Positions 6,292-27,886 of a stretch of DNA of 64,000 bases are shown here, piece after piece. The stretch lies in the NCBI GenBank assembly GCA_963768055.1, contig CAVYGN010000001.1, positions 1,184,001 through 1,248,000 of the forward strand, read 5' to 3'. The DNA comes from an uncultured Spirochaetota bacterium (lineage in GTDB: Bacteria; Spirochaetota; Brevinematia; Brevinematales; JAOACQ01). The notes under the pieces are model-generated. The model did no database searches. It was given only the letters and a program-made list of their open reading frames with translations, and was not told where the DNA came from. A program made the position numbers and the translations under genes. Each line of letters opens with the position of its first letter. Positions within the stretch are counted from its first letter, which is position 1.

Positions 6292-6305
6292 GCCTTTTCC
6301 TCCTT

Positions 6306-8386: not shown

Positions 8387-8394
8387 ACTCCAGT

Positions 8395-9549: not shown

Positions 9550-10466
9550 GAAAGGCTCCGCAGGGCAAGAATTTGAATAAAGCAATCCTCAAGTCCAGGT
9601 ATATTTTCCCTTACGGTATTAATTTTTAAACCCTCTTTTTCAAGGATATCCTTTATATTTTGTCTGTGATTTCCTTTTTCGGAAACAAATAATTTCAAGG
9701 TCGCTCCCGTCAGGATGACTGATTTGTATTCATCATAGAGTTTCAGTATTCTTTCAGCCTTTCTTGAATCGGAGGTTGTTATCTCCATAAATTTCATGGA
9801 GATCATTTGTTTAATTTCTCCGGGAGTGCCTGTAGAGATTATTTTTCCCTTATGCATAAGAGCTATCCTGTTGCATCTTTCCGCCTCGTCAAGATAAGCC
9901 GTACTAATGACTATGGTTTTTTTTTCACCCAAAAGGTCATAGAGTATTTTCCAGAATTCCCTCCGCGACACTGGATCTACCCCGTTAGTAGGCTCGTCGA
10001 GTAGAATGATTTCAGGGTTATGAACAAGACAACAGGCAAGCCCCAATTTTTGTTTCATCCCGCCCGAAAGTTTCCCGGCCATTCTGTTCCTGAAAGGCTC
10101 AAGCAGGCTGAAGGAATAAAGAACCCTTAATTTTTTACGTATTTCTTTATTCGGCATTCCGAAAAGATTCCCGAAAAAGAAAATGTTTTCCTCGACGGTG
10201 AGGTCCTCGTACAACCCGAATTTTTGCGGCATGTATGCAAGCCCGTCTTTAAGGGCGTAAAGATTTTTAAATAGTTCGATATCCTTCATAAGGACCGATC
10301 CTGAAGAAGGCTGAAGAATCCCCGCAAGAATCCGGAGAAGGGTGCTTTTACCGGATCCATCCGGCCCGACGATACCGAAAATCTCCCCTGTGCCGACATT
10401 AAAAGAAACATTGTTTAAAGCCTCTGTTCCCTTAAATGATTTGACAAGGTTCTTCGCTTCGATCAA
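9546..10466 (-). CDS. ABC transporter ATP-binding protein
   Basis: GPDGSGKST, LSGGMKQK, LLDEPTNGVDP; TTG start overlapping the HlyD stop. Confidence 0.93.
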   Translation of the reverse strand: MIEAKNLVKSFKGTEALNNVSFNVGTGEIFGIVGPDGSGKSTLLRILAGILQPSSGSVLMKDIELFKNLYALKDGLAYMPQKFGLYEDLTVEENIFFFGNLFGMPNKEIRKKLRVLYSFSLLEPFRNRMAGKLSGGMKQKLGLACCLVHNPEIILLDEPTNGVDPVSRREFWKILYDLLGEKKTIVISTAYLDEAERCNRIALMHKGKIISTGTPGEIKQMISMKFMEITTSDSRKAERILKLYDEYKSVILTGATLKLFVSEKGNHRQNIKDILEKEGLKINTVRENIPGLEDCFIQILALRSLS

Positions 10467-11266
10467 TTTGAACTCTCCGTATAAATAACAGCGTCAGCCG
10501 GCATTCCCGGTTTAAGTGCTTCATCGGGATTATCAAGGGTTATTTTTACCGCGAACATCAATTTCACCCTTTCATCTTTTGTCTGTATCGTTTTTGGGGT
10601 GAACTCGGCCTCCTGGGAGATAGTTGAAACTATTCCGATGAAATCCCTCTTAGGATAGCTGTCGACATTTATAACAGCTTTCATACCCAGTTTTACAAGC
10701 CCCAGTTTTTTTTCATCAACATAAATCTTTATATAGACATGCCTGAGATCGGCCATCGTCAGGATGGCTGAACCTGGAAAAGCAGTCTCGCCGATTTCAA
10801 GGTTCTTTTCAAGAACAGTTCCGCTTATCGGAGCATAAATGACGGCATTCTCGATATCGGCAATAACCTGGTCAAGAGAGGCTTTTGAAACCATGAAAAC
10901 CGCCTCCGCATTATCCATTTCTTTTTTTGATACCGATCCTGCGGCGTAAAGGTCCTTGACCCTTTTAAGATTCAAATCCGCGTTTTCAAGGCTGGCCTTT
11001 GCTGAATTCCGTTCTGCCGCCAGTTCGTCGTAGATGAGTCTTACAATCAGTTGCCCTGCTTTAACTTCTACACCCTCGTCTACAGGAAGTTCGGCGATCC
11101 TCCCCGATATTTTCGAACTTATCTCTATCTCAGTTACCTCGATCGTTCCCGAACCTTCAATATTTCCGCTGTTTTTATTGATATTCCTGAATACTTCAAA
11201 AAATAATGTCGCCGCCGCAAGTATTACTATTACAGCGGCTATCGGCAATATCGCCTTTGATTTCAT
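10463..11266 (-). CDS. HlyD/YbhG-family efflux membrane-fusion protein
   Basis: N-terminal TM, SGTIEVTE, lipoyl-like half motifs, AEFTPKTIQT, LKPGMPAD. Confidence 0.93.
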   Translation of the reverse strand: MKSKAILPIAAVIVILAAATLFFEVFRNINKNSGNIEGSGTIEVTEIEISSKISGRIAELPVDEGVEVKAGQLIVRLIYDELAAERNSAKASLENADLNLKRVKDLYAAGSVSKKEMDNAEAVFMVSKASLDQVIADIENAVIYAPISGTVLEKNLEIGETAFPGSAILTMADLRHVYIKIYVDEKKLGLVKLGMKAVINVDSYPKRDFIGIVSTISQEAEFTPKTIQTKDERVKLMFAVKITLDNPDEALKPGMPADAVIYTESSN

Positions 11267-11276
11267 TTGAACCTCC

Positions 11277-11888
11277 TTATTTCAGTTTAAGAGTCCTCAA
11301 AAGGCTGTCTGAAAATTTTTCCGTAAAAGCATGCTCCAATTTTATATGGCTGATGCCGTAAACTCTTGCAACATCGTCAGAGATGCAATGATACATGATC
11401 AGAGGTATCCCCTGGAAGAAAAGCATTTTTGTAATATAAGATTCCCTGTCCTCAATTAAATTTCCCGCGTCTTTACTCATCATATTGTAAATTTCATTGT
11501 AAAAATCGCTCATCAGGGATAAGACAATTTCATAATCCAGTTTCCCCCTTAAAACTTCTGAAAGGATGATCCGGATGAAAGACGATTCACTGCCTATTAT
11601 CTGCCGCATATTCTCGAGTATGATTTCAGGCCTTATTGTTTTCTGGCTTTTCATACCTTCTATCTGCTCCGCCAGATGTTTTTTAGCCGCATCGATTATT
11701 CTTCCGATCAGCTCTTTAAGAATGTTTTCCTTGCTTTGAAAATGGTAGTAAAGCATGACTTTACTTACTCCGGCTTTACGGGCAATGTCCTCCATTTTTG
11801 TTCCGTCATAACCCTTATTTATCATAATTGCCCTGGCCGCGCCCAAAATACTCTCTTTCGTGTCCCCGGCCGTATTCTTTTTTTCCAT
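11277..11888 (-). CDS. TetR/AcrR family transcriptional regulator
   Basis: ILGAA...KGYDGTKMEDIARKAGVSKVMLYYHFQSKE HTH; first gene of the efflux operon. Confidence 0.93.
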   Translation of the reverse strand: MEKKNTAGDTKESILGAARAIMINKGYDGTKMEDIARKAGVSKVMLYYHFQSKENILKELIGRIIDAAKKHLAEQIEGMKSQKTIRPEIILENMRQIIGSESSFIRIILSEVLRGKLDYEIVLSLMSDFYNEIYNMMSKDAGNLIEDRESYITKMLFFQGIPLIMYHCISDDVARVYGISHIKLEHAFTEKFSDSLLRTLKLK

Positions 11889-11944
11889 ACCATACTCCTG
11901 GTTTATACTCAAGATATGAACTCATTATTTTAACTATTGGTATA

Positions 11945-12076: not shown

Positions 12077-12574
12077 ATGAAATATTCGATGATTTCAATT
12101 TTAATTGCATTTTCCGCATTCACTTTTGTTTTTTCCGAAGACGCCCCTACAAACGGCGGCAAGGCACCAATGATCAAGGGTGAAGACTTGGGTACGGACG
12201 CCGGGGATATTTCGCTCAAGCTTTATGCCGGGAAAGTAGTCCTTATTAATTTCTGGGCCACCTGGTGCCCGCCCTGCCGTGGTGAGATCCCCGACCTGAT
12301 AAAACTGCAGAAAGTTTATAAGGGGAAATTGGAGGTATTCAGTGTTTCTGTCGATCAGAACGGCCCTGATAAGGTCAGGGAATTTTCTAAAAAATACGGG
12401 ATCAATTATCCGGTCATAATGTCCGATGACGGCATAGTCCGTAGCTACGGCGGGATAGAGGCTATCCCCACGACTTTCTTAGTCGACACCAACGGCAATC
12501 TTGTAAAGAAATATGTAGGCTCTATGACTTTTGACCAGTACGAGGCTGAAATCAAGCCTTTCCTGCCGGAATGA
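12077..12574 (+). CDS. TlpA/ResA-like exported thiol-disulfide oxidoreductase
   Basis: Signal peptide, GKVVLINFWATWCPPC, cis-Pro motif AIPTTF; start at ATG 12077. Confidence 0.92.
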   Translation: MKYSMISILIAFSAFTFVFSEDAPTNGGKAPMIKGEDLGTDAGDISLKLYAGKVVLINFWATWCPPCRGEIPDLIKLQKVYKGKLEVFSVSVDQNGPDKVREFSKKYGINYPVIMSDDGIVRSYGGIEAIPTTFLVDTNGNLVKKYVGSMTFDQYEAEIKPFLPE

Positions 12575-12612
12575 ACAGGTTGACTGACATAATTTATTGT
12601 AAGGAGGTTATT

Positions 12613-13809
12613 ATGGTCGCAAAACAATTGAAAATGTGGCTGATTATTATCCTGATCTCGATTCCCGCCTTAACTTTTGGAAGTTCTCTGTATGACGCCG
12701 CCGACGACGGCAACGTCGCATTCATAAAAAATTACAGCGGCGATATCAATGCTAAAGATTCGGATGGTAAGACTGCATTGATGTTTGCATCCGAAAACGG
12801 CCAGTCTGTGGCTGCCGCAGCGCTGATGGAAGCCGGAGCCGATGTTAACGAAAAGGATAACGCCGGCATGACAACTTTAATGTATGCGTCTGAAAACGGC
12901 CAGCCTGATATTGTCAAATCACTAATTAAAGCTAAGGCGGAGATAAATGCGAAGGATAAAAATGCAAAAACGGCTTTAATGTATGCTGCTGAAAACGGCC
13001 AGTCTGTGGCTGCCGCTGCGCTGATCAAGGCGGGATCAGATGTCAATGCCAGGGATAATGACGGCAATACGGTTTTGATCTGGTCTGCCACTCGTAATGA
13101 CCCGGAAGCAGTTAAAGTTATAAAATCGTTGATAGAAGCGAAAGCCGATGTTAACGGCAGGGATAATGACGGCAGTACAGCATTAATGCAAGCGGGCAAA
13201 TCGGGGATTGCCGGAAACATCAAAGCATTGATAGAGGCCAATGCGGATATAAACGCCACCAATGAAGACGGAACGACTGCTTTGATGTATGCCATAAAGG
13301 CAGGAGCTGATTCAAATGTGATTAAATTATTAATCGATTCCGGGGCGGATGTCAACACTGTGGATAAAGACGGCAATACCGCTTTAATACGTGCGACCGA
13401 TTCATATACCTCAATGGTATCAGCAGCTTTTGGCGTTAATTCAGATGCGGCAGTAGTAATCAAACTTTTGGTTGAAGCGAAAGCGGATGTCAACATTATG
13501 GATAAAGACGGCAATACTGCTTTAATGTATGTAGCAAAGTGGGGATTAGCGGACGCAGTTAAAGTTTTGATCGAAGCGAAGGCAGATTTAAATGCCAGGA
13601 ATGATGAAGGAAAGACGGCCCTGATATTTGCAGCAAAATTTCCAATTTTGAATATGAAACCGAAAATCAAGTTAATTAGAGAGTTGATAGAAGCCGGAGC
13701 AGACATCAATATCAAGGATATGTACGGTTATACAGCTTTGACATATGCGGCCAGAAGGAATGCAACATCGGAAACGGTTGAAGTTTTAAAAGAAGCCGGT
13801 GCGAAATAG
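12613..13809 (+). CDS. Secreted ankyrin-repeat protein (about 10 repeats)
   Basis: Signal peptide, repeated G.TALM.A...LI.AGADVN.KD units; AAGGAGG RBS before ATG 12613. Confidence 0.92.
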   Translation: MVAKQLKMWLIIILISIPALTFGSSLYDAADDGNVAFIKNYSGDINAKDSDGKTALMFASENGQSVAAAALMEAGADVNEKDNAGMTTLMYASENGQPDIVKSLIKAKAEINAKDKNAKTALMYAAENGQSVAAAALIKAGSDVNARDNDGNTVLIWSATRNDPEAVKVIKSLIEAKADVNGRDNDGSTALMQAGKSGIAGNIKALIEANADINATNEDGTTALMYAIKAGADSNVIKLLIDSGADVNTVDKDGNTALIRATDSYTSMVSAAFGVNSDAAVVIKLLVEAKADVNIMDKDGNTALMYVAKWGLADAVKVLIEAKADLNARNDEGKTALIFAAKFPILNMKPKIKLIRELIEAGADINIKDMYGYTALTYAARRNATSETVEVLKEAGAK

Positions 13810-13812
13810 GCA

Positions 13813-14907
13813 TCAATTTTCGAGATATCCGAATACGGGCTCGCCGGCTTTGGGATGCCAGACCCTGTCCAGCTTTTCTTTAACGCGCCTTATGGCCCCT
13901 TCTTCGCTGGAGACATAGAGGGTTTTTCCGCTCTCGGCGGCGACAAGGGGCCTTAACTTTACCCTGTCCGAGAGGGCCATAAATCCGCCGTCGAAACCGA
14001 TAATGAACGCGAAGGGACCGTTCAAAAGCAGGCTTCCGTAAACAGTCCTGAGCCCGGTATAAAGCGATTTCGATTCCTCGTCCATAGCATCTATGTCTTT
14101 CCAGAACGGGGCGGCGAAAACCTTGGCGATCATATCCCATGACAGGTTATGTTTCCTTTTTAACAGGTCGACGCCGTAAGCGACAACTTCGGTATCGGTG
14201 CGCATTGTGCATTCGTAGCCGAAACTCTCAAGGTATCTCCGGTTGATGCCGTATGAAGAAATCTCTCCGTTATGGACTACCGAATAATTGAGAATTGTAA
14301 ATGGATGAGCGCCTCCCCACCAGCCGGGTGTATTCGTGGGAAATCTGCTGTGAGCGATCCATGTATGGGCCTCGTATTCATCAAGCCTGAAAAAATCGCC
14401 CAGCTCATGGGCCTCCCCGACCCCCTTGAATGCGCCCATGTTCTTGCCGCTTGACATGATGAAAACGCCTTCGATATTTTTATTGATGAATAAAACCTTT
14501 GAAACTACGTAGTCGTCTTCTTTTTCATTTCCCAGACGGGCGTCGGAAACCCGGCAGAAATACCTGTAAAAGAGGGGCGACCGGCCGATCGTCTTGTTTT
14601 TTCTCGTGGGTATCTGGTCTTCATAAACTATATCGAAATTCTCTTTTATATACTCCTTCCCCCTATCCATGGATGCGGTATCGTCATACATAACATGCAG
14701 GGCATAATAATCCTTATATGTATCGTAAAGGCCGTAAACGGCAAAACCGCCCCCAAGGCCGTTTCCCCTTTCTTTCATATGCTCTATGCCTTTTATGGCG
14801 TCGATGCCTTTGGATTTCCTGCCGTCCCTGTTTATAAAGCCGATAAGGCCGCAGCCGGATATATCCTTTTCACCATAAGGGCTTGAGAGCCCGTAATTAT
14901 GCGTCAT
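13813..14907 (-). CDS. Class-II glutamine amidotransferase, split glutamate-synthase (GltB N-terminal domain) type
   Basis: G-CG nucleophile near the N-terminus, ERGNGLGGG, AHSRFPTNT, WWGGAHPF, VHNGEISSY, TDTE, DRVKLRP. Confidence 0.88.
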   Translation of the reverse strand: MTHNYGLSSPYGEKDISGCGLIGFINRDGRKSKGIDAIKGIEHMKERGNGLGGGFAVYGLYDTYKDYYALHVMYDDTASMDRGKEYIKENFDIVYEDQIPTRKNKTIGRSPLFYRYFCRVSDARLGNEKEDDYVVSKVLFINKNIEGVFIMSSGKNMGAFKGVGEAHELGDFFRLDEYEAHTWIAHSRFPTNTPGWWGGAHPFTILNYSVVHNGEISSYGINRRYLESFGYECTMRTDTEVVAYGVDLLKRKHNLSWDMIAKVFAAPFWKDIDAMDEESKSLYTGLRTVYGSLLLNGPFAFIIGFDGGFMALSDRVKLRPLVAAESGKTLYVSSEEGAIRRVKEKLDRVWHPKAGEPVFGYLEN

Positions 14908-16273: not shown

Positions 16274-17440
16274 TCACCGGCGGCTGTTAATGTTAACAGG
16301 AATTTTTACTATGAAACGGCTTCCCTTTCCCGGGCCATCGCTTTCAGCCCATAAGGAGCCGTTGTGGAGCTCGGCCATTTTTCTGGACAGCGTTAAGCCG
16401 AGTCCTGTACCCGGTTCTTTGAACGAATTTTTGCCCTGAATCTGGTAAAAAGATTCGAAAATATTTTCAAGCTGGTCTTGAGGGATTCCTATGCCTGTAT
16501 CCTTTACGCTAATTATAATTTCATCGCCCGACATTTCACCGGCAACGGTTATTGTACCTCCGTCCGGAGTGACTTTCGAAGCATTGGAAAGAAGATTTAT
16601 AATGATCTGCCTGATCATTCTTTGATCCGCCTCAATCTCATGGTTTTCCATTTCCGAATCAAGAAACAACTCAAGCCTTATATGACGCTTCAGGCATCTT
16701 TCCTCGATTATAATCAGGCTCTTCCTGATTACCGGCCCGATCGGAAAAAATGATTTGACAAGCGTCATTTTATCGGCCTCGATTTTAGACAGGTCGAGTA
16801 ATTCGTTGATCAGCGACAGAAGATACCGTCCGCTTTCCATAATGTCACTGACATATTCCCTTTGCCGTTCATTTAATGGCCCGTAATATTGCTCATTAAG
16901 GATCTGGGAAAAACCTATGATGGAATTAAGCGGAGTCCGGAGTTCATGCGAAATATTCGCGATAAACATATTTTTAATACGATTAGCCGATTCCGCGGAA
17001 ATTTTAGCAATCTGAAGGCTTCGGATCCTGTTCAGGAAAACAAATAACAGGGTAATAAGGAAACCCGGGATCAGGACAAAAATGAAATTCGGATCCCTGA
17101 TAAGATTTACCGGATTGCCGCCGGTTAACGTCCCTATGCCATGCATATTGAAAATATAGATAAACAAAATAGAGAAAAAAACAAGAACCAGCATATAAAG
17201 AAATGTTTTAACAATCAATTCTTGCAAAAGCGAAACCCAGCGAACCAGATTGGATGAAAGTATTGCATCCAGTATAACTAAAATCAGAGAACAGGAAAAA
17301 CCTATGCCGACCGCCCCTTCAATATTGTTTAATGACGAGTTTCCGTATAAAAAAGGGATAACGAGGCTTATCAAAATACAGATAAGGATATTTTTGTTAT
17401 TGACTTTAACAGCATTGATTACGATAGAAGAAATATTCAT
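16274..17440 (-). CDS. Membrane sensor histidine kinase (orphan)
   Basis: About 4 TM helices, H-box FIANISHELRTPLNSI, N-box NLLSNA, G1 DTGIGI, G2 GTGLGL. Confidence 0.92.
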   Translation of the reverse strand: MNISSIVINAVKVNNKNILICILISLVIPFLYGNSSLNNIEGAVGIGFSCSLILVILDAILSSNLVRWVSLLQELIVKTFLYMLVLVFFSILFIYIFNMHGIGTLTGGNPVNLIRDPNFIFVLIPGFLITLLFVFLNRIRSLQIAKISAESANRIKNMFIANISHELRTPLNSIIGFSQILNEQYYGPLNERQREYVSDIMESGRYLLSLINELLDLSKIEADKMTLVKSFFPIGPVIRKSLIIIEERCLKRHIRLELFLDSEMENHEIEADQRMIRQIIINLLSNASKVTPDGGTITVAGEMSGDEIIISVKDTGIGIPQDQLENIFESFYQIQGKNSFKEPGTGLGLTLSRKMAELHNGSLWAESDGPGKGSRFIVKIPVNINSRR

Positions 17441-17483
17441 ATGGTATTATACTTCCGCCTGATTTTACGGTCAAAAATTTCAG

Positions 17484-17591
17484 CGGTCAACAGTCAGCAC
17501 TCAATAGTCGAAAGTCAATATTATAATCAATACTTTACGGGAGACAGCATGACCGTAGACTGCAGACTGCCGACTATATCGATATTGACGG
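17484..17591. repeat. Inverted heptamer array A (NAGTCRR)n ... (YYGACTN)n
   Basis: CGGTCAA CAGTCAG CACTCAA TAGTCGA AAGTCAA, spacer, then ATGACCG TAGACTG CAGACTG CCGACTA. Confidence 0.75.
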
Positions 17592-17639
17592 CAAGGTTTT
17601 TGTTGCTTAACTTTATTATATATAAAAAAGGGGTGTTTT

Positions 17640-17819
17640 ATGAAAAAAATAGATCCGGTATGCAGGGTGGAGGTGATTATGGACTCCGAATTGCATTCAG
17701 ATTACAAGGGTAAAACATATTATTTCAATTCAAAGGGATGTATGGACGAGTTCACCAAAGATCCTGAAAAATTTATAAATGAAAACGAACCGAGGAGAAA
17801 CCTCTATTCCTGCTGTTAA
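17640..17819 (+). CDS. YHS-domain small protein (59 aa)
   Basis: Not in the ORF track (below 60 aa): MKKIDPVCRVEVIMDSELHSDYKGKTYYFNSKGCMDEFTKDPEKFINENEPRRNLYSCC; RBS AGGGGTG. Confidence 0.85.
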   Translation: MKKIDPVCRVEVIMDSELHSDYKGKTYYFNSKGCMDEFTKDPEKFINENEPRRNLYSCC

Positions 17820-17821
17820 AA

Positions 17822-17901
17822 CAGTCGATAGTTTAAAGTCAACAGCCTATATTCATTAATTAATGTCATACTGTTGACTTTCGGCTGGCGACTGTCAACT
17901 A
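17822..17901. repeat. Inverted heptamer array B
   Basis: CAGTCGA TAGTTTA AAGTCAA CAGCCTA ... TTGACTT TCGGCTG GCGACTG TCAACTA. Confidence 0.75.
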
Positions 17902-17969
17902 TTTTTGGTTCAAAATTGATTAATTCCGATATTCAAAGTACTATCTAGTAAAGCAAGTAGAGATTATAT

Positions 17970-20900
17970 ATGGTAAATCATGACGACGTTATAAGAGAAC
18001 TAACGGGATCAAGCGAGTATTTAAGGGCGCTGATATCGAAAAATAACGATATTTATTATGAGTTGGAATCGGCTATCGCTGATTGGAACGATAAAAAGGT
18101 TTTTAAAAGAACCGCATATTATGAAAAATACCAATTTAAGGCATCTTTAAAGGATAATGAAGGCATACTTCTCCAATCAAGATTAATTAAAAACAGGGAA
18201 CTGGCTTTGATAGCTTTAAGGGATTTCTTACATATAAATTCAGTAAGCGATACTCTTACGGATCTTTCAAAACTCGCGGATTTCTGCATCGATTATTCAA
18301 TAAAAAGCCTGCTCAGTTTTTCAGACATTAAAAAAAGCGTTACTTATGAAGTTTTAAAAAGAAATCTTATAATTATCGGAATGGGCAAGCTCGGGGGCAA
18401 CGAACTCAATATAAGTTCAGACATAGATCTTATCTTTCTCGGGAAAGACTCAAGTCTGTCCGATGACGGTATGAGGCATGATATTGAAAACTTCCTTTCA
18501 AGGCTTCTTGATTTTATTTACGCAACTTCCAGCGAAGGATTTTTATATCGAGTCGATATGAGACTCAGGCCGGAGGGCGAAAACGGACCCTTGATCATGG
18601 GAATTCAAAACGCAATCGAATATTACAAAAGCAGGGCCAGGAAGTGGGAACTCCAGGCTATGATAAAAAAAAGACTTGTCTGGGGAAGCGAGGAACTCTA
18701 TCAGGATTTTGCAATCCCCCTTGACAATATTGTGTACCGGCACCATCAGCCCCAGAGTATCATTTACGATATTAAAAAGATCAAGAACGAAATCGAACTA
18801 AATATCCGGCGCAAAAAACTTGCGTTTGAAATAAAACAATCTCCCGGCGGCATAAGGGATATTGAATTTATTATCCAATTTCTCCAGCTTATTCATGGAA
18901 TCCGTTATCCCGAGATAAGGAACTCGAATTCAATATCGGCATTGGCCTCGCTAAATACTTTCCATATAATAACCCCTGACGAATTTACTACTCTGAATAT
19001 CAGTTATATCATCCTGAGGAAGATTGAAAATATACTTCAGCTGAAAAACAATACCCCCGAACATGCCTTGCCGGAAAAAGACAGCGATATCGAGAAACTT
19101 TTCAGATACTGGAAGATCGGCGGATTTGAAAGCGGTTCGGGCAATTATGGCAGGGATTTTAAAAACAGGGTCGCAAAGATTATGACGGATGTGAGAAGTA
19201 TTTTCTCATCCCTGTTCGACGAAACGATCCGTTATCTTGAATTAAAGGACAACCTTATCAAGGAGCATCCGGATATAGATAAAACTCTTCTTGAGGATCA
19301 TTTTCTGAGAATGGACAGCGAATATTTTCTCCGTTTCCAGGAAAATGAAATCTATAATCATATAAAAATGATCTCAAAGCTCGATCTTCAAAATCCCGCC
19401 GAGTTGGAAGCTGAAGAGGCCGGCCAGGGCAAATGGAAAATTACAATTGTAGCTTTTGATTATTATTATGAATTTTCCAAAATCGCGGGCCTGGTCTCCG
19501 CTTATTATTTAAAGATAATCAGCGGAGAATCATTTACATACAGCGATTATACGCCTTCGATAAGCAGTGATCCGGATACTATTTACAGGAGAAAAAAAAA
19601 GAGGATCTATCCCTTTTCCTCTGCAAATAAATCCGAATTACTTATATATAGAAGAAAAATAGTATGTTTTTTATTTGTTGCGCCGCTGGAAGGGCATGTC
19701 CTGGAAGGGTATGCCCCGGAGGGACCTGATTGGGATGCCTTTAAAAAAGAATTTATCCATATACTTAATTTCCTGGAAACTAACAGAATAAGAGAATCGG
19801 AGGAATTTCTCAACAATAAGATCCTGGGACTTATTTCCGGAATTCAATCCGGGGAAACCCTGATGCTTTCACCGGTCGATATAGAGGTGGACAATGATTC
19901 AAGCAGCCAGTATACCATATTGAACATACGTTCGAGAGACAGTTTCGCTTTCCTTTACACTTTTACCAATGTACTTGCCCTCAATAATTATTATATTTTT
20001 AAAATCGAAATAGATACTGTCGATGACAGGGCCTTCGACAGGCTGTTCATTCTCACCAGGGACGGTAAAAAAATACTGGAATCTGAAAAAATTGAAAATC
20101 TTAAAATAGCCGTCGCGCTTATCAAGCAGTATTCAACCTTGCTTCAGAACGCTGTCAACCCGGATAAGGCGCTTCATTATTTCGACGAACTTCTTTCAAA
20201 GGTACTTGAAAGCGGAGGTAAAACGGAATTGCCTATTCTCGGTCAGAATGACGTTCAGAAAAAACTTGCAACCGTTTTCGGGATCGGGGATTATTTTTGG
20301 GAGGATCTTATAAGATTTCAATACACAGATATGCTCCCTATATTGAACGATCCCTCGCTTGAATTACGATTTTCAAGAAGCCTTTTAACGGCCAATTTTA
20401 CAAATAATTATCTTAAAAAAAAACCTGAAGCAGAAGGCCTTGGTGAATTCGGAAAACATTTGAGTGAATGGAAAGATATGGAAATGTTCAGGATCGATCT
20501 CAGGCAGATCCTGAAAAAAATCGATATGATCCAATTTTCACTTGAACTGACTGAATTGGCTGAAGCTGTAATAGAAATAGCCCTTCAAAGGATAAATAAA
20601 GAAATTTTCGGGGTCCATGTTAAAAATATACCTCCCCTGGCCGTATTCGGCCTCGGAAAACTCGGAGGAAGGGAACTCGGATATGCTTCCGATATAGAAA
20701 TTATGTTTATTTATGATGATACCGATATCGGCGGCGACCTGGCCGATATCGATTCGTATTTTGAAAAATTCATTCAAACTTTTCTCAGCGTCATCCGTTC
20801 AAAGAGGGAGGGAATTTTTGAAATCGACCTCAACCTGAGGCCATATGGGAAGTCTTCCAAATTGTCGGTGTCAAAATCGAGCTTCTTTGAATATTTCACC

Positions 20901-21509
20901 GACGGCAAGGCTTATTATTTTGAAAAACAGGCGCTTGTTAAATTAAGGCCTGTTTCGAACGAAAAATCCTCCTTAAAATTAATACAGGAAATAACAGCCC
21001 ACCGCGATAAATTCGTTTACAGCGGGGAAAAGCCTGACATAACAGCGCTCCTGAATTTGAGGGAAAAGCAGATCCGCACATACATTAAGGATCCCGTTCT
21101 TACAAATATAAAATATTCTAAGGGGTGTCTCGTAGATATAGAATATCTGGTCCAGACCCTTCAGATTGCATATGGAAAGACTTTTTTATCCCTGAGACTC
21201 GAATCCACGCTCGAGGCTGCGGAGGCCCTCTTCAATACTGGTATAATTAGCGAACAGGTCCGGAACGGATTAACTGAAAGCTATCTTTTTTTCAGGAATC
21301 TGATAAATATTCTCCGAATGGTTAAGGGAAACGCCAAAGATCTGAATGTATACCCGGAATCTTCAATGGAATTCGATTACCTTGTCAGGAGGAGTTATTT
21401 TATCGGCATTATCGAACAGAAATCACCCTCGCTTTTAAAAAACATGATTGAAAAATACAGACAGCAAGTCTTAAATATTTTTAACGATGAAATCGGCAAG
21501 TTAAAATGA
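17970..21509 (+). CDS. glnE: Glutamine synthetase adenylyltransferase/removase GlnE with inserted tandem ACT domains
   Basis: Two NTase domains (GMGKLGGNELNISSDIDL..RVDMRLRPEG; GLGKLGGRELGYASDIE..EIDLNLRPYG), each followed by K..PGGIRDIEF / KYSKGCLVDIEY; central GlnD-like ACT pair. Confidence 0.9.
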   Translation: MVNHDDVIRELTGSSEYLRALISKNNDIYYELESAIADWNDKKVFKRTAYYEKYQFKASLKDNEGILLQSRLIKNRELALIALRDFLHINSVSDTLTDLSKLADFCIDYSIKSLLSFSDIKKSVTYEVLKRNLIIIGMGKLGGNELNISSDIDLIFLGKDSSLSDDGMRHDIENFLSRLLDFIYATSSEGFLYRVDMRLRPEGENGPLIMGIQNAIEYYKSRARKWELQAMIKKRLVWGSEELYQDFAIPLDNIVYRHHQPQSIIYDIKKIKNEIELNIRRKKLAFEIKQSPGGIRDIEFIIQFLQLIHGIRYPEIRNSNSISALASLNTFHIITPDEFTTLNISYIILRKIENILQLKNNTPEHALPEKDSDIEKLFRYWKIGGFESGSGNYGRDFKNRVAKIMTDVRSIFSSLFDETIRYLELKDNLIKEHPDIDKTLLEDHFLRMDSEYFLRFQENEIYNHIKMISKLDLQNPAELEAEEAGQGKWKITIVAFDYYYEFSKIAGLVSAYYLKIISGESFTYSDYTPSISSDPDTIYRRKKKRIYPFSSANKSELLIYRRKIVCFLFVAPLEGHVLEGYAPEGPDWDAFKKEFIHILNFLETNRIRESEEFLNNKILGLISGIQSGETLMLSPVDIEVDNDSSSQYTILNIRSRDSFAFLYTFTNVLALNNYYIFKIEIDTVDDRAFDRLFILTRDGKKILESEKIENLKIAVALIKQYSTLLQNAVNPDKALHYFDELLSKVLESGGKTELPILGQNDVQKKLATVFGIGDYFWEDLIRFQYTDMLPILNDPSLELRFSRSLLTANFTNNYLKKKPEAEGLGEFGKHLSEWKDMEMFRIDLRQILKKIDMIQFSLELTELAEAVIEIALQRINKEIFGVHVKNIPPLAVFGLGKLGGRELGYASDIEIMFIYDDTDIGGDLADIDSYFEKFIQTFLSVIRSKREGIFEIDLNLRPYGKSSKLSVSKSSFFEYFTDGKAYYFEKQALVKLRPVSNEKSSLKLIQEITAHRDKFVYSGEKPDITALLNLREKQIRTYIKDPVLTNIKYSKGCLVDIEYLVQTLQIAYGKTFLSLRLESTLEAAEALFNTGIISEQVRNGLTESYLFFRNLINILRMVKGNAKDLNVYPESSMEFDYLVRRSYFIGIIEQKSPSLLKNMIEKYRQQVLNIFNDEIGKLK

Positions 21510-22397
21510 AATATTCCCGTTTATTTTTTTTATTTTCTTATCGTCGTACATAAGTGAATCCGCTGCCTTCAAAGCGTCTTTAAGGGCCTCCCTGCTAAAA
21601 TCATAAAGCTTGGAAATCCCGAAGGAAAGAGAAAGGCAGTATGGATTTCCTCTTTTATTATACTCGCTGACTTGCTCCCTTATCCGGGATATAACAGCGG
21701 TTTCAAGATTTTCGGACTTACCGGTTATTACAAGTACCGCAAACTCATCTCCTCCCATACGGGCAATAACATCCCATTCCCTGAAAACATTTTTTAAAAA
21801 TAACGCTGTGTCTTTAATAACAGCATCGCCGGTGTCATGACCGAAAGCATCGTTAATCAGCTTGAGATTGTCTATATCGATATAAACTATATGAGTAAAT
21901 AAATTATTCCTTGCGGCAAACTGGTATTGCTTGGCCGCCAATGCATAAAACCCTCTTCGGTTTGATAGTCCTGTAAGTTCGTCAGTTCTGGAGAGCCGGG
22001 AAACCGAGTTGAATAATCTGAAGCGTTCAACCGCATATTTGATCGATTTATTAATATTTTCAGCATTGATCTCGGACTTTACTAAATAATCCTGAGCTCC
22101 GAACCGTATAGAGGTAAGAGCCATCCTCTCATCCCTCAAGCCGGTCAGCACAATAATCGGCACATCGCTTGACAATAATTTTATATTATTGACTGTTTTA
22201 TTTCCCTGGCTGTCGGGCAGTTCTAGATCCAGAATAATCAGCCCTATGTCTTCGTTCAGGACTATTTTCTTCCCCTGCGCCAGGGTTTCCGCTTTAATTA
22301 TCCTGCTGTCTGTGTCCTTTAAGTACTCCTCCAGCAGCCTTGCATCCCCGGGGTTGTCCTCTATGACCAGGATATTGCCGTATTCTGTCGATATCAT
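21501..22397 (-). CDS. Response-regulator diguanylate cyclase (REC-GGDEF)
   Basis: IEDNPGD, ILDLELPD receiver; DELTGLSNRR, I-site RxxD (REWD), RMGGDEF. Confidence 0.93.
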   Translation of the reverse strand: MISTEYGNILVIEDNPGDARLLEEYLKDTDSRIIKAETLAQGKKIVLNEDIGLIILDLELPDSQGNKTVNNIKLLSSDVPIIVLTGLRDERMALTSIRFGAQDYLVKSEINAENINKSIKYAVERFRLFNSVSRLSRTDELTGLSNRRGFYALAAKQYQFAARNNLFTHIVYIDIDNLKLINDAFGHDTGDAVIKDTALFLKNVFREWDVIARMGGDEFAVLVITGKSENLETAVISRIREQVSEYNKRGNPYCLSLSFGISKLYDFSREALKDALKAADSLMYDDKKIKKINGNISF

Positions 22398-23944
22398 CCT
22401 GAACTCCCGGACCCATTTTGGGCCTCCAGTTCAGCGGGAATAGTAAAATAAAAAGTCGATCCTTTTTGCACTTCCGATTCAACCCAGATATTACCCCCAT
22501 GTCTTTCAACTATTTTCTTGCAGATTGAGAGGCCTATGCCGGTTCCCCCGTATTCGGACCTGGGATGAAGGCGCTGGAAGATCACAAATATCTTTTCGAA
22601 GTAAGCCGGATCTATTCCAATACCGTTGTCCTTAACTGAGAACAGCCATTTCCTGCCGCATTTCGATGCTGAAACAGCGATGCATGGTTTTTCACTCCCC
22701 TTGAACTTTATAGAATTTGACACAAGGTTTTCAAAAAGTTGTATAAGCTGCGCCCTGTCATATAAGATCTTCGGGAGACGGCTATGGGTAATTTCTACCC
22801 CGCTCTCCTTAATAGCCACAGCCAGATCTATTTTTATCTCTTCAATGATCTCGTTGCAGTCGATAATTGCAGGAGGATTACCCATAGTAGATATTCTCGA
22901 GTAATCGAGCAAATCGTTAATAAAGTTCTGCATTCTTGTGGCGCCGTCGACGGCAAAATTGATGAATTCGTCCGCATTTTTGTCAAGTTTACCCTTGTAC
23001 CGGTCAGAAAGGAGTTTTGTATAGCTTGCAACCATCCTCAGGGGTTCCTGGAGGTCATGGGAGGCCACATAGGCGAATTGTTCAAGGTCATGATTGGAAC
23101 GCCTCAACTCTTCCTGGGTTTTTTTCAAATCGGAAATTTCATGCAGAACGGAAATTATTTTCATGGGTTCGCCATGTTCATCATAAACGACCCTCGAATT
23201 GATAAGCACAGGATACTTCTTGCCATTTTTATCCATTATCTCTATTTCGAAATTTCTAAAACACCCATCGTTCAAGCATTGAGAAAGGCTTTTAACCATC
23301 CTGACATGTTCCTCTTCATCTATCATTTGAAGCGGCATGCTGCCTATAACTTCCTGTTCATTATAGCCTGTTAATTCAAGGAACGCCCTGTTCACCTGTA
23401 TTATCCTCCCCTGCAGGTCTGTTACTTCAATGGGATCCATCATGCCTTCGATAATTTCGGATGCCGTTTTAAGCGACTTGGCGGTTAATAAGGCCGTTTC
23501 CCTTTCAGCCTGTTCCTTTTTAAGCTCCGTTATGTCGTTAAATACAACCAGGAGGTTCTGGGCGCCATTGATATTGAAAGAGATGAACCGGTTGTTAAGC
23601 CATATATCCTTTCCGGTTTCTGTTGTAATATGGATTTCTCTTTCAGCCTCCTCCCCGGTATTAAGGGTATAATCTTTAGCCTCAATAAACCCTGAATTCT
23701 TCCGGTTTTCAAGAAAGCCGGGAAAACCCTTGCCGATTTTCATCAGGGTCCGATTTGCCGCCACAAGGTTCCCGTTATTATCGTACAATGCTATGCCTAC
23801 CGGAAGAATATCTATTATTTTCTTGTCAAATTCCAGGATATCCTGCCGGGGTTGCAGCGATGAATTATTCTTCAACACTTCAATTTCTCTTTCAAGTTCC
23901 ACGATCTTTTGCTTTAATCTGAAAACATCTTCCTTTTCTTTCAT
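22394..23944 (-). CDS. Cytoplasmic PAS-PAS histidine kinase (Cph1-like kinase core)
   Basis: Two PAS/PAC domains, FAYVASHDLQEPLR, DNGIGI, FQRLH, GTGIGL; ATGA overlap with the REC-GGDEF gene. Confidence 0.93.
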   Translation of the reverse strand: MKEKEDVFRLKQKIVELEREIEVLKNNSSLQPRQDILEFDKKIIDILPVGIALYDNNGNLVAANRTLMKIGKGFPGFLENRKNSGFIEAKDYTLNTGEEAEREIHITTETGKDIWLNNRFISFNINGAQNLLVVFNDITELKKEQAERETALLTAKSLKTASEIIEGMMDPIEVTDLQGRIIQVNRAFLELTGYNEQEVIGSMPLQMIDEEEHVRMVKSLSQCLNDGCFRNFEIEIMDKNGKKYPVLINSRVVYDEHGEPMKIISVLHEISDLKKTQEELRRSNHDLEQFAYVASHDLQEPLRMVASYTKLLSDRYKGKLDKNADEFINFAVDGATRMQNFINDLLDYSRISTMGNPPAIIDCNEIIEEIKIDLAVAIKESGVEITHSRLPKILYDRAQLIQLFENLVSNSIKFKGSEKPCIAVSASKCGRKWLFSVKDNGIGIDPAYFEKIFVIFQRLHPRSEYGGTGIGLSICKKIVERHGGNIWVESEVQKGSTFYFTIPAELEAQNGSGSSG

Positions 23945-24128: not shown

Positions 24129-25547
24129 TTAAATATCGTAGTAGAGGAAAAACTCGTAGGGATGCGGCCTCTGCTGAATAGCCCTGACTTCGTTAACCAT
24201 TTTATATTCTATCCAGGTATCGATCACGTCTTTTGTGAATACATCGCCCTTCAGGAGAAACTCATGGTCGTTTTGAAGGTTGTTTAAAGCCTCTTCGAGC
24301 GAACCTGGAATGTTGCCGACTTTAGACTGTTCTTCCGGAGGAAGATCGTAGATATTTTTATCCATCGGCTCGCCTGGGTCAATCTTATTCTGGATTCCGT
24401 CGAGTCCGGCCAGGAGCATAGCGGAAAACGCAAGGTAAGGGTTACAGCTCGGATCGGGTGTCCTGAATTCAAGCCGTTTTGACGCAGGGTTTGTAGAATA
24501 CATTGGAATTCTTACGGCAGCGCTTCTATTCCTTGCCGAATATGCCAGTTTGATTGGTGCTTCGAAGCCGGGAACAAGCCTCTTATAAGAATTCATAGTA
24601 GGACAGGTAATGGCGACAAGGGAATTAGCGTGCTTTAAAATTCCGCCGATATACCAGAGTCCTTCCTGCGAAAATCCGGCATATTTATTACCAGCAAAGA
24701 GGTTTTTACCGCCCTTCCAGATACTCTGATGGCAATGCATACCGCTTCCATTATCGCCGAAGAGAGGCTTGGGCATGAATGTAACGGTCTTGCAGTTGTT
24801 GACGGCTACGCTCTTCGTAACGTATTTATAAAATAGAACCTGGTCGGCCATTTTCACGAGATCGGTATACCTCATATCTATTTCAGCCTGTCCGGCTGTT
24901 GCGACTTCATGATGGTGCGCTTCGATGCGGATTCCGACTTTTTCAAGCATCTGCACCATTTCACTTCGGATGTCCATAAGAGAATCGGAGGGAGGAACCG
25001 GGAAATATCCTTCTTTATGCCTGATCTTATAACCCTTGTTCCCGCATTCTTCTACCCTGCCTGTATTCCATACGCCTTCATCGGAATCGATGTAATAATA
25101 GCCCTCTTTCGCATTCTGGCCGTATCTTATATCATCGAATATGAAGAATTCAAGCTCCGGGCCAATATAAATAGTGTCTCCTATTCCGGTGCTTTTTAAA
25201 TAATTGACCGCTTTTTTAGCGATATGCCTCGGATCTCTTGTGTATTCCTGGAGGGTGATGGGATCCTTGATATCCGCTATCATTATCAAAGTGGGATACT
25301 GTGAGAACGGATCGATTACAGCAGTAGTCGGGTCAGCCATTAAAAGCATATCGGATTCGTTAATCCCCTGCCAGCCTCGGATGGAAGAACCGTCAAATCC
25401 TAATCCTTCCTCAAAAGGACTTTCGTCCTTGAATTCTGAAACAGGATAAGTACAGTGCTGCCACATACCCGGAAAATCCATGAAACGCAAATCTACCTGA
25501 ACGATACCTTCTTTTTTTATCAGGTCCAATACTCCTTTAGCGTCCAT
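24129..25547 (-). CDS. glnA: Glutamine synthetase type I (GSI-beta)
   Basis: [50 protein letters not shown]; adenylylation loop [10 protein letters not shown]. Confidence 0.98.
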
Positions 25548-25590: not shown

Positions 25591-25606
25591 AGCAATTATT
25601 GTTCCA
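25591..25606 (-). promoter_or_regulatory. Sigma54 (-24/-12) promoter of glnA
   Basis: Minus strand TGGAACAATAATTGCT = GG-N10-GC, about 45 nt upstream of the glnA ATG. Confidence 0.8.
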
Positions 25607-25810: not shown

Positions 25811-27886
25811 ATGGACAATAATTACACTAAGGAACTTGAGGAAAAGATAAAACGGTTAAAACTTATCCAATATCTCACAATAGCTATGAACGAGACTTCC
25901 GATTCCCAGGAACTTTTAAAAATAATGCTTGATAAATGCATAGCTATTACGGGCGCTGACAGCGGTTCAATTATGATAAAAGACCCCGGTTCCAGGCACC
26001 TGCGTTACGAGGCGTTTAAGGGGCTTGACGAGGATATGGTCTTCCGGACCCCGATCGAAGTGGGTGAAGGCCTCACAGGAACTGTGTTTCAGGATGGAAT
26101 TCCCAGGCTTGTCAGTGATGTAAGTATCGATCCGGTCTATATTTCTGTACGGAAGGATATACGGTCGGAACTGGCAGTCCCGCTCTCAGTACAGGGAAAA
26201 ATAATAGGTGTTGTTAATGTTGACAGCGCTAAGATAGGTGCTTTTACCGAGGGCGACATGGAATTTCTGCAGACAATATCCAACCAGGCCGCCCAGATAC
26301 TTGTCAGAACAAACCTGAACCATCAACTTGAAAGTAAAATAAAATTCAAGGATATTCTTCTGGATATATCCCAGAGTATTGAAAAGATCTTCGAATTGTC
26401 GGATTCATTTGAAATCGTGATGAAAAAACTGGCTGACAGCTTTGGAATTTACAGGGGAATGCTCGTTCTCTTCGAGAAGAACGAACCGAATAAGCTTTCG
26501 ATATATAACGCCTACAATATTACAGACGAAGAAATGTCCCGAGGTATTTACAAAGTAGGCGAAGGAGTCGTAGGCAAGGTCGTCGAAACCGGCAAGGCCC
26601 TTTCAATTAAAGATATCAATAAAGACGATTCATATCTCAACAGGCTTCAAATCAAGCGCGATAAAAATGTCCCGATCTCTTTTATAGCAGTTCCGATAAA
26701 AATCGAGGGGATAGTAGTAGGCGTTCTCGCTGTCGAAAAATACTTTGAAAATGAGAACACTTTAAACGACGAGGAAGACATGATGATCCTTGTGGCAAAT
26801 ATCATAGCAAATAAAGTCAAATCGTGGGAAAGAATATATAAAGACAAAGAGAATCTCATCGCTGAAAATACTATTCTAAAAAAAGAGCTTTTCAAGAATT
26901 TCGCAATCGACAATATTATCGGTAAAAACAAGCAAATGATAGCGGTTTTCGAACTTATTAAAACCGTGTCCGACAGCAATTCATCTATTTTGATCCTAGG
27001 TGAAAGCGGTACAGGTAAAGAACTTGTCGCCCAGGCCCTGCATGTCGGAAGCGGAAGAAAGGATTCCCCCTTTGTAAGCATCAACTGCGCATCGATCCCT
27101 GAAAATCTTCTCGAGTCCGAACTCTTCGGATATAAAAAAGGGGCTTTTACCGGTGCGATATCCGATAAAAAGGGGAAATTTCAATTGGCTAACGGGGGGA
27201 CAATATTCCTCGATGAAATCGGCGATATGCCCCTTTATCTTCAGGCAAAACTTTTAAGGGCTATACAGGAAAGGGAAATCGAACCCCTCGGCAGCGAGGC
27301 CAAAATAAAAATAGATATCAGGATCATTTCGGCAACCAACAAGGAGCTTGATAAATTGATAAAGGACGGAAAATTCAGGAAAGACCTTTATTACCGCCTC
27401 AATGTAATCGAAATCCAGATACCCCCTCTGAGGAGCAGAAAAGACGATATCCCGCTTCTTGTAAACCATTTTATCAAAAAGTATTCAACCCGGGACAACA
27501 AAAATGTGTATGGCATCTCGCAGGAATCTTTAAGGCTCCTCCAGTCTTATAACTGGCCGGGCAATATCAGGGAACTTGAAAATGTAATTGAAAGAGCGGT
27601 TCTCCTCTGCCGGTCTCAGACTATTGAGGTTGTGAACCTCCCGTCATTTCTCATGGATATAGAAGAAGTGCCTGATATTCATATAAGCAAATGGATAGAA
27701 GGCTTTGTTAAAAATCCGGCCTGCAACGGGAAACTTTATGAAAGGATTATAGGCCATATTGAAAAGGAGCTTATTTCAAGGTCTCTTATATTCAACAATC
27801 GAAACAAGGTCAAGACCTCGGACTTTCTCGGCATCAACAGGAATACCCTTAGAAGCAAGATGGAAGAGTATAATATCAAAATATAA
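25811..27886 (+). CDS. Sigma54-dependent activator, GAF-GAF-AAA+-Fis-HTH (NifA-like)
   Basis: Two GAF domains (GEGLTG; RGIYKVGEGVVG), GESGTGKE, ESELFG, GAFTGA, FLDEIG, WPGNIREL, LGINRNTL; no receiver domain. Confidence 0.93.
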   Translation: MDNNYTKELEEKIKRLKLIQYLTIAMNETSDSQELLKIMLDKCIAITGADSGSIMIKDPGSRHLRYEAFKGLDEDMVFRTPIEVGEGLTGTVFQDGIPRLVSDVSIDPVYISVRKDIRSELAVPLSVQGKIIGVVNVDSAKIGAFTEGDMEFLQTISNQAAQILVRTNLNHQLESKIKFKDILLDISQSIEKIFELSDSFEIVMKKLADSFGIYRGMLVLFEKNEPNKLSIYNAYNITDEEMSRGIYKVGEGVVGKVVETGKALSIKDINKDDSYLNRLQIKRDKNVPISFIAVPIKIEGIVVGVLAVEKYFENENTLNDEEDMMILVANIIANKVKSWERIYKDKENLIAENTILKKELFKNFAIDNIIGKNKQMIAVFELIKTVSDSNSSILILGESGTGKELVAQALHVGSGRKDSPFVSINCASIPENLLESELFGYKKGAFTGAISDKKGKFQLANGGTIFLDEIGDMPLYLQAKLLRAIQEREIEPLGSEAKIKIDIRIISATNKELDKLIKDGKFRKDLYYRLNVIEIQIPPLRSRKDDIPLLVNHFIKKYSTRDNKNVYGISQESLRLLQSYNWPGNIRELENVIERAVLLCRSQTIEVVNLPSFLMDIEEVPDIHISKWIEGFVKNPACNGKLYERIIGHIEKELISRSLIFNNRNKVKTSDFLGINRNTLRSKMEEYNIKI

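Follow-up and report, generated by a model that had tools for sequence, protein, structure and literature searches.

The window analysed here, a stretch of 64,000 nucleotides from contig CAVYGN010000001.1 (positions 1,184,001 to 1,248,000 of the forward strand; assembly GCA_963768055.1) of an uncultured Spirochaetota bacterium of the Brevinematales, contains a glnE-type gene, P0001, whose product carries a GlnD-type pair of ACT domains between its two nucleotidyltransferase (NT) halves. Adenylylation of glutamine synthetase (GS) is the end of a textbook bicyclic cascade that runs from GlnD through PII and GlnE to GS. The first-pass annotation of the window had placed the open reading frame, which encodes 1179 amino acids (aa), at exactly the coordinates given below, and had described a GlnE with a GlnD-type linker and ACT pair between the NT halves. 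This description was confirmed by Pfam, NCBIfam, profile alignment and the predicted fold, and the three peptide strings quoted in its support are all present in the translation (residues ~444-713, nucleotides 19299-20110). The elements of the gene, with the evidence for each (AF2, AlphaFold2), are as follows.

17970..21509, + strand: glnE-type gene P0001, open reading frame with translation of 1179 aa; layout NT half, ACT module, NT half
17991..19217, + strand: N-terminal half (NT 8-247 plus GlnD_UR_UTase 272-416), AR-like, that is, adenylyl-removing (AR) by homology (Pfam, BLASTP, trees)
18378..18437, + strand: catalytic motif of the N half, G-x-G-K-L-G-G-x-E-L-N-x-S-S-D-I-D, with D151 and D153 (alignment columns)
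19257..20213, + strand: GlnD-type regulatory module, residues 430-748, formed by a helical linker, ACT1, connecting helices, ACT2 and a helical tail (NCBIfam, hhalign, AF2)
19281..19376, + strand: three linker helices, module residues 9-40, counterpart of the stretch before ACT1 of GlnD (AF2 secondary structure; PRK05007 648-738)
19398..19778, + strand: ACT1, module residues 48-174, with a variable basic loop at ~95-133 between strands 2 and 3 (AF2 model, alignment)
19875..20144, + strand: ACT2, module residues 207-296, with the family-wide loop D-[TS]-x-x-F-L-Y (PF24931, GlnD models)
20235..21506, + strand: C-terminal, post-module half, with NT and helical domains of GlnE type that belong to a separate DxE subfamily (Pfam GlnE 2e-31, GlnD_UR_UTase 1.7e-9)
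20649..20708, + strand: catalytic motif of the post-module half, ending in E-L-G-Y-A-S-D-I-E, with D908 and E910, the second carboxylate being Glu (alignment columns)

Pfam recognises in the full-length protein two GlnE NT domains, with a GlnD_UR_UTase helical domain after each, at residues 8-247 plus 272-416 and at ~764-1000 plus 1045-1124 (PF03710, E 3.9e-80, and PF08335, E 1.4e-31, each in two stretches). The close homologues P0002-P0005 have 1162-1186 aa, and their alignment begins at residues 1-3. The GlnE equivalog models of NCBIfam match strongly and under their cut-offs (NF008292, 397.8 bits vs 487; NF010706, 350.2 vs 724; NF010707, 350.5 vs 625), a shortfall that fits an inserted module and a divergent C half. 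In its general plan P0001 resembles Escherichia coli GlnE (the adenylyltransferase, ATase, of 946 aa; PDB 1v4a for the N-terminal AR domain and 3k7d for the C-terminal adenylylating, AT, domain): both contain two homologous NT-plus-helical halves in one chain, and the GS substrate has the same Tyr loop in both organisms. The PDB sequence matches of the halves of P0001 are 1v4a and 3k7d. The N half finds 1v4a as its best match (E 2.6e-51), aligns through residues 58-415 with E. coli GlnE 78-435 at 189 bits, compared with 118 bits for the E. coli C half (BLASTP), and clusters in the trees with the N halves of canonical GlnE; its columns G139, K140, D151 and D153 are invariant in 44 full-length homologues. 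Residues 813-1117 of the C half align with E. coli K-12 GlnE 600-916. However, the gap between the aligned halves measures 397 aa in P0001 and 164 aa in E. coli GlnE, and the extra part is the GlnD-type ACT pair, which has no counterpart in the E. coli protein.

When residues 430-760 were scanned alone against NCBIfam, all six matching families were GlnD equivalog models. Module residues 6-96 fall on GlnD model positions 648-738 of 884, which comprise the linker and the first ACT domain, and module residues 206-286 on positions 839-919 of 940, the last ACT domain (E 2.1e-14). A profile of the module (A1, made of P0001 and 28 short hits, 29 sequences) aligned by hhalign with residues 651-871 of the 890 of E. 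coli GlnD in a single colinear stretch of 221 columns (probability 97.4%, E 1.2e-11), and it also matches the GlnD encoded by the same genome (E 4.3e-10). With E. coli GlnE the profile gave no match (0.3%, hhalign), and the candidate idea that the central regulatory region of that protein is a degenerate ACT pair is thus unsupported. BLASTP of the module against residues 630-721 of the genome's own GlnD reached only E 0.019, with 27% identity over 97 aa; a recent copy of that gene was therefore rejected, the low identity indicating an old homology. Among the 29 sequences of A1, PF01842 is found in 16 and PF24931 in 14 at E <= 0.01. Against PDB sequences the best match of the profile is the large glutamate dehydrogenase (GDH), marginal at E 0.032 and covering the linker and ACT1, and no GlnD chain is among the matches. 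The middle region is, hence, a GlnD-type linker plus ACT pair. GlnD and P0001 are both enzymes of the same NT superfamily acting within nitrogen control, and the C-terminal end of GlnD shares with the module the colinear homology of linker, ACT1 and ACT2 as well as the tandem ACT fold. The arrangement differs: in GlnD the ACT pair is C-terminal and follows an HD domain, whereas in P0001 it lies N-terminal to an NT half and no HD domain is present. Moreover, ACT1 of P0001 has a long variable loop, unlike that of GlnD.

The first-pass annotation had staked its proposal on the central region adopting ACT folds, and two such folds were obtained. The AF2 model of the module, computed on A1, has a mean predicted local distance difference test score (pLDDT) of 87.3 and a predicted template-modelling score (pTM) of 0.86, and it shows two strand-helix-strand-strand-helix units. 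Three linker helices lead into ACT1, whose variable loop is poorly predicted; a pair of connecting helices then joins it to ACT2, and a helical tail closes the module. In ACT1 the strands (E) and helices (H) are E48-56, E59-67, H72-82, E85-94, E134-143 and H157-174, with pLDDT <50 at 109-115. Comparison of the model with 48,161 chains by VIA-align placed tandem ACT regulators at the top, namely aspartate kinase 3l76 (Z 10.1, root-mean-square deviation 3.7, 160 residues), the regulatory domain of threonine dehydratase 9d2s (Z 8.0, deviation 3.5, 139 residues) and the large GDH 7a1d (Z 7.5). Lower ranks were taken by the ACT-like domain of GL3, CASTOR1/2 (Z 5.6-6.5) and the single ACT units 3w7b and 1zpv; the matches that cover the ACT1 unit are 9c7n, 3w7b and 1zpv. 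In Foldseek the best match was again a large GDH (E 2.5e-4). The ACT-like domains of the 180-kDa GDH of Mycobacterium smegmatis (7a1d, 7jsr) are thus the best match of the module in both Foldseek and PDB sequence searches, and that enzyme also belongs to nitrogen metabolism, but the similarity is marginal and the catalytic context is different.

Conservation of the ACT loops was counted over 156 module sequences. In the ACT1 loop, D-Y-x-x-x-F-S-x-I-x-G, the Asp is kept in 149, the Ser in 127 and the final Gly in 152; in the ACT2 loop, D-[TS]-x-x-F-L-Y, the Phe is kept in 153, the Leu in 154 and the Tyr in 122. Our preferred reading, which we regard as probable with a good deal of room for doubt, is that the gene encodes the long form of a bifunctional GlnE, whose ACT pair binds a nitrogen-status ligand and lets the enzyme read nitrogen status directly. 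The N-terminal half would be an ordinary AR-type module. The ACT pair would bind a small nitrogen-status ligand, most plausibly glutamine, because the ACT pair of GlnD (residues 708-890) is treated as the presumed glutamine sensor in the available part of PMC3173338. The fixed junction between this pair and the DxE half would be the route by which the pair sets the balance between adenylylation and its removal at Tyr400 of GlnA. The pair might instead sense something else, such as another amino acid, 2-oxoglutarate or a nucleotide. The best structural matches bind Lys/Thr, Ile/Val or Arg (aspartate kinase, threonine dehydratase, CASTOR), and the residues of the ACT loops differ from those of GlnD, both of which would suit such a ligand. 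Nevertheless, outside the family the closest relatives by sequence are without exception GlnD models (6/6), and glutamine is the product of the enzyme's own pathway, so that we consider a different ligand quite improbable.

The module is widespread. Searched alone against a library of 1.84 billion proteins, it retrieved 669 representative proteins at E <= 1e-3; a cut-off of E <= 1e-10 leaves 278. Thirty-one of 35 hits scanned with Pfam carry a GlnE domain, the other four being fragments of ~300 aa. Among 172 module-bearing sequences an NT half begins a median of 11 aa after the module in 125, and the other 47 end no more than 128 aa past the module, as fits truncated gene calls; wherever enough sequence follows, the module always stands directly before a DxE NT half. 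Around this constant cassette three layouts occur: NT-module-NT, as in P0001; module-NT alone, in proteins of ~680-780 aa; and module-NT-NT, in proteins of ~1240-1290 aa. In L020, a locus of the last type, the post-module half is closest to the C half of P0001 (235 bits) and the distal half to its N half (139 bits), which indicates that module-NT-NT is a permutation of NT-module-NT. A single-contig genome, G030, has a module-NT-NT GlnE frame with one in-frame TAG inside the module match (G030:C1:1442752-1443663). The named members of the family come from Brevinematales and other Spirochaetes, Kiritimatiellae, Acidobacteriota, Nitrospira, Tectomicrobia and Abditibacteriales. The first-pass annotation had mentioned similar architectures in annotations of some Nitrospirae and Planctomycetes; the former holds for Nitrospira, in a form with one NT module, and no Planctomycetes name was met among the few names inspected.

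The half that follows the module has a signature of its own. In a MAFFT alignment of 190 NT halves the second catalytic carboxylate is Glu (S-D-x-E) in 103/103 post-module halves and Asp in 75/75 partner halves of the same proteins; it is likewise Asp in both E. coli halves, whose C half reads S-D-x-D, and in nine of ten halves of module-less, canonical spirochaete GlnE. D151, D153, D908 and E910 are all invariant in the 44 full-length homologues, as are the motifs G-K-x-G-G and R-P-x-G of the post-module half. The replacement of S-D-I-D by S-D-I-E in the C half would be a conservative change in a predicted catalytic site. A FastTree phylogeny of 119 NT halves unites all 62 post-module halves in a single clade (support 100), apart from the pre-module, distal and canonical halves, and the clade returns with support 100/100 in an IQ-TREE mixture-model tree of 41 halves; it is long-branched, with a stem of 0.66-0.71. 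In the mixture-model tree the post-module halves and the canonical C halves, including E. coli AT, are split from all N-like halves with support 65/86, and in the FastTree and LG+G4 trees the affiliation of the post-module half with AT or AR was left unsettled. The C-terminal domain is the one that adenylylates in E. coli GlnE, according to the available part of PMC12409994, and the post-module half is probably the adenylylating half of P0001, a role assigned by homology.

An altered role for this half also has to be weighed, in which it would modify something besides GS, such as PII, or would be a non-catalytic regulatory copy, so that no plain two-way GS switch would exist. Such a change of job would agree with the separate long-branched clade and the invariant change at the metal site, and the combination of ACT pair, NT and helical unit resembles a permuted GlnD without its HD domain. 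On the other hand, the DxE half matches Pfam GlnE (2e-31) and not the NT domain of GlnD, and the invariance of the first Asp, G-K-x-G-G and R-P-x-G argues for catalysis. The cassette is, moreover, present in genomes without PII, and each genome checked on this point, the present one and 5/5 others, encodes a Tyr-loop GS alongside it. A changed job is, in our opinion, highly improbable.

The substrate presumed in the preferred reading, a bifunctional GlnE gated by its ACT pair, is encoded close by.

24129..25547, - strand: glnA, type I GS of 472 aa, presumed substrate (Pfam; 57% identity to E. coli GlnA)
24348..24350, - strand: codon of Tyr400, predicted adenylylation site in the Tyr loop (loop alignment with E. 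coli GlnA)

This glnA, 2.6 kb from glnE, is the only GS gene of the genome (one PF00120 match genome-wide). The loop around Tyr400 aligns with MDKNLYDLPPEE of E. coli GlnA, and the target loop that had been reported as intact in the nearby GlnA (NIYDLPPEE) is indeed present. The Tyr of this loop is the adenylylated residue in textbook accounts, and Tyr400 is the predicted site in this GlnA. 

The genome also retains the components of the classical relay. On contig 2, amtB, a PII gene and glnD lie in a row as an operon; the GlnD, of 873 aa, is composed of NT, helical, HD and ACT domains, and its match to TIGR01693 (positions 13-845, E 1.6e-108) stays below the cut-off. Three further PII matches are found elsewhere in the genome. 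At C1:100763-101374 (L003) a PII domain ends a frame of ~609 aa, possibly a fusion of ammonium transporter and PII, and is closely followed by a second, partial PII match; at C1:256227-256544 (L002) a PII gene follows a frame of 475 aa. The search for glnD and glnB/glnK that the first-pass annotation had recommended thus found both kinds of gene. Its proposal of direct sensing that bypasses GlnD and PII stands as a plausible idea, with a family-level pattern in its favour, and loses force in this organism, which keeps amtB-PII-glnD and more PII genes; since GlnD and PII are retained, a bypass is not required here. 

The wider pattern was obtained from an even sample of 151 Spirochaetota genomes, with the module accepted at E <= 1e-28 inside a GlnE frame, GlnD at E <= 1e-30, and PII taken as absent when no match appeared even at E <= 0.01. 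GlnE occurs in 33 of these genomes and carries the module in 19 (ACT-GlnE). GlnD is present in 26/151 genomes, but in only three of the 19 with ACT-GlnE (G000, G132, G077). Of the 14 genomes with module-less GlnE, two have fragments; GlnD accompanies seven of the eight full two-module frames (944-1024 aa), or 7/12 once the four f5-family genomes, in which the second half is degenerate, are included. Counted by family, GlnD is found alongside the module in two of ten families and alongside module-less GlnE in five of seven. PII is present in 14/19 ACT-GlnE genomes and was not found at E <= 0.01 in the other five, G032 and G119 (98% and 95% complete) and G068, G088 and G097 (83%, 75% and 84%); a GS with the Tyr loop is kept in all five. 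The genome's own GlnD, used as query in 10 GlnD-less ACT-GlnE genomes, gave no match, a result of little weight without a positive control, and the claim is carried by the family search. The four f5 genomes (G076, G086, G103, G139; L018), of ~1.8 Mb each, encode a GlnE-like protein of ~900-940 aa with a good N half and a second half that is barely recognisable (18.9-19.0 bits in L018), and GlnD was not found in them. 

These data bear on an alternative explanation, in which the classical relay is unchanged: the ACT module would be a spacer, an oligomerisation element or a docking site for PII, and control would come from PII and PII-UMP as set by GlnD. PII is described as controlling GlnE through a central regulatory domain, for which no ACT domain is mentioned in the available part of PMC12409994, and the module of P0001 occupies the position of that E. 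coli central region between the halves. The retained amtB-PII-glnD operon and further PII genes fit an unchanged relay, and so does the substitution in P0001 of the hallmark Gly of both ACT loops, which is detailed below. Nevertheless, homology links the module with the sensor end of GlnD and with no part of E. coli GlnE, and the two loops, D-Y-x-x-x-F-S-x-I-x-G and D-[TS]-x-x-F-L-Y, are as strongly conserved as a functional site would be. Moreover, the module-NT cassette occurs in five sampled genomes without PII (E <= 0.01), where a PII-docking role would have no partner, and 16/19 of the genomes that carry it are without GlnD (E <= 1e-30). An unchanged relay is therefore judged unlikely. 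The reading of P0001 as a GlnE that senses nitrogen status through its own ACT pair can accommodate both situations. In this organism, where PII and GlnD are still encoded, the module would add a direct input rather than replace a lost relay; in relatives without GlnD, and in some cases also without PII, it may be the only input.

Several observations weigh against our preferred reading. The Gly at the turn between strand 1 and helix 1 is a hallmark of the ligand site of ACT domains according to the available part of PMC3173338, but in P0001 it is replaced by Tyr in ACT1 and by Ala in ACT2, and across the family it is kept only in 90/156 modules in ACT1 and 56/156 in ACT2. The Pfam scan for ACT domains that had been suggested from the outset was borderline for ACT2 (PF24931 at 23.3 bits in the whole protein and 27.7 alone, cut-off 27) and gave no match in the first ACT stretch, so that the expected domains were recovered in that region by the GlnD models of NCBIfam, in Pfam at the margin for ACT2, and not at all in Pfam for ACT1. 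In BLASTP the post-module half gives nearly the same score with either E. coli half (C half, 94 bits; N half, 93 bits), and approximately unbiased (AU) tests reject no alternative grouping of it (p-AU 0.079 and 0.283), so its assignment to the adenylylating lineage is weak. The anti-correlation of module and GlnD rests on related genomes, ten families with the module and seven without, several of them incomplete, and the four f5 genomes show GlnD missing without any module; the sampled genomes being kin and some of them incomplete, the distribution is a pattern and not a test. This genome encodes a full GlnD and has two or more good PII genes, which would leave room for the classical relay to GlnE. 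Finally, E. coli ATase, which has no ACT domain, is reported to respond to glutamine, and an ACT pair is thus not needed for glutamine sensing by a GlnE.

A stronger version of direct sensing goes further than the reading we prefer. In it, ACT-GlnE would be a self-contained ligand-gated GS switch, in which a glutamine-sensing ACT pair drives the DxE half, GlnD and PII are dispensable, the amtB-PII-glnD operon of this genome serves only the control of ammonium transport, and the change from Asp to Glu is an adaptation of the active site to gating. The sampled genomes that combine the cassette and a Tyr-loop GS, and are without GlnD and PII, point that way. We regard this version as possible, with the balance of probability against it.

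The surroundings of the gene are partly conserved. The same order of a 364-aa amidotransferase-like gene, glnE, glnA and a GAF-GAF sigma-54 activator gene recurs in each of three Brevinematales loci, namely the window, L009 and L010, with glnE and glnA within a few kb of each other every time. 

25811..27886, + strand: GAF-GAF sigma-54 enhancer-binding protein, divergent from glnA (Pfam; also beside glnA in L009 and L010)

A sigma-54-type promoter-like site, which departs from TGGCAC-N5-TTGC at one position, is located at 25592-25606 (- strand), 45 bp ahead of the start of glnA, and faces the divergent activator gene; the position alone is suggestive, and over the window the pattern is not enriched (21 matches vs 34 in shuffles). 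In a scan of 17300-21900 for promoters and terminators nothing rose above shuffled sequence either (17 promoter-like sites vs a shuffle mean of 14.2; three terminator-like vs 4.4). The 364-aa protein that lies upstream of glnE in the three loci (13813-14907, L009:4758-5852 and L010:4564-5658, all on the - strand) gives weak matches to class-II glutamine amidotransferases (E ~1e-9) and may be a stand-alone amidotransferase of nitrogen assimilation. Interspersed among these genes in the window, but not in L009, are a histidine kinase (16274-17440, -), a REC-GGDEF diguanylate cyclase (21501-22397, -) and a PAS histidine kinase (22394-23944, -); the convergent REC-GGDEF frame and glnE share 9 nt at their stop ends. 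Farther upstream, after a redoxin-like gene, 12571-13809 (+) encodes a 412-aa protein made almost entirely of ankyrin repeats (Ank_2, E 6.1e-69), unusual in a free-living bacterium, and 4915-11912 (-) holds an efflux-type cluster unrelated to glnE (TetR regulator, HlyD-type adaptor, two ABC ATPases, two ABC-2 permeases and an outer-membrane factor). Partial DNA matches to the stretch come from peat and freshwater-sediment metagenomes, and no RNA datasets are listed for it.

Full-text searches of a literature library that leaves out ~1.7 million PMC articles and the subscription journals found no paper combining GlnE and an ACT domain. The nearest literature is the paper on plant ACR11 (PMC3173338). 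In the available part of that work ACR11 and ACR12 are GlnD-like ACT pairs tied to glutamine synthetase and proposed as glutamine sensors, ACR11 being co-expressed with GLN2; the Pfam ACR9-like ACT model is, in turn, the one that matches ACT2 of P0001. Unlike P0001, the plant proteins are stand-alone chloroplast ACT proteins, with no fusion to an enzyme that modifies GS. ACT-GlnE is a real and well-supported architecture, a widespread and apparently unstudied design. What appears to be new is the invariant DxE signature, the cassette rule with its counts and the cross-tabulation with GlnD and PII in Spirochaetota.

A large branch of GlnE carries the sensor module of GlnD wired to one special catalytic half. 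The DxE signature provides a sequence marker with which to annotate this subfamily, which the equivalog cut-offs of NCBIfam currently miss, and ACT-GlnE offers a simple test system for the gating of a nucleotidyltransferase by an ACT pair. The finding suggests that many bacteria collapse the GlnD-PII-GlnE cascade into one protein, and such a collapsed cascade would bear on how ammonium assimilation is tuned in nitrite oxidisers and in bacteria of peat and sediment.

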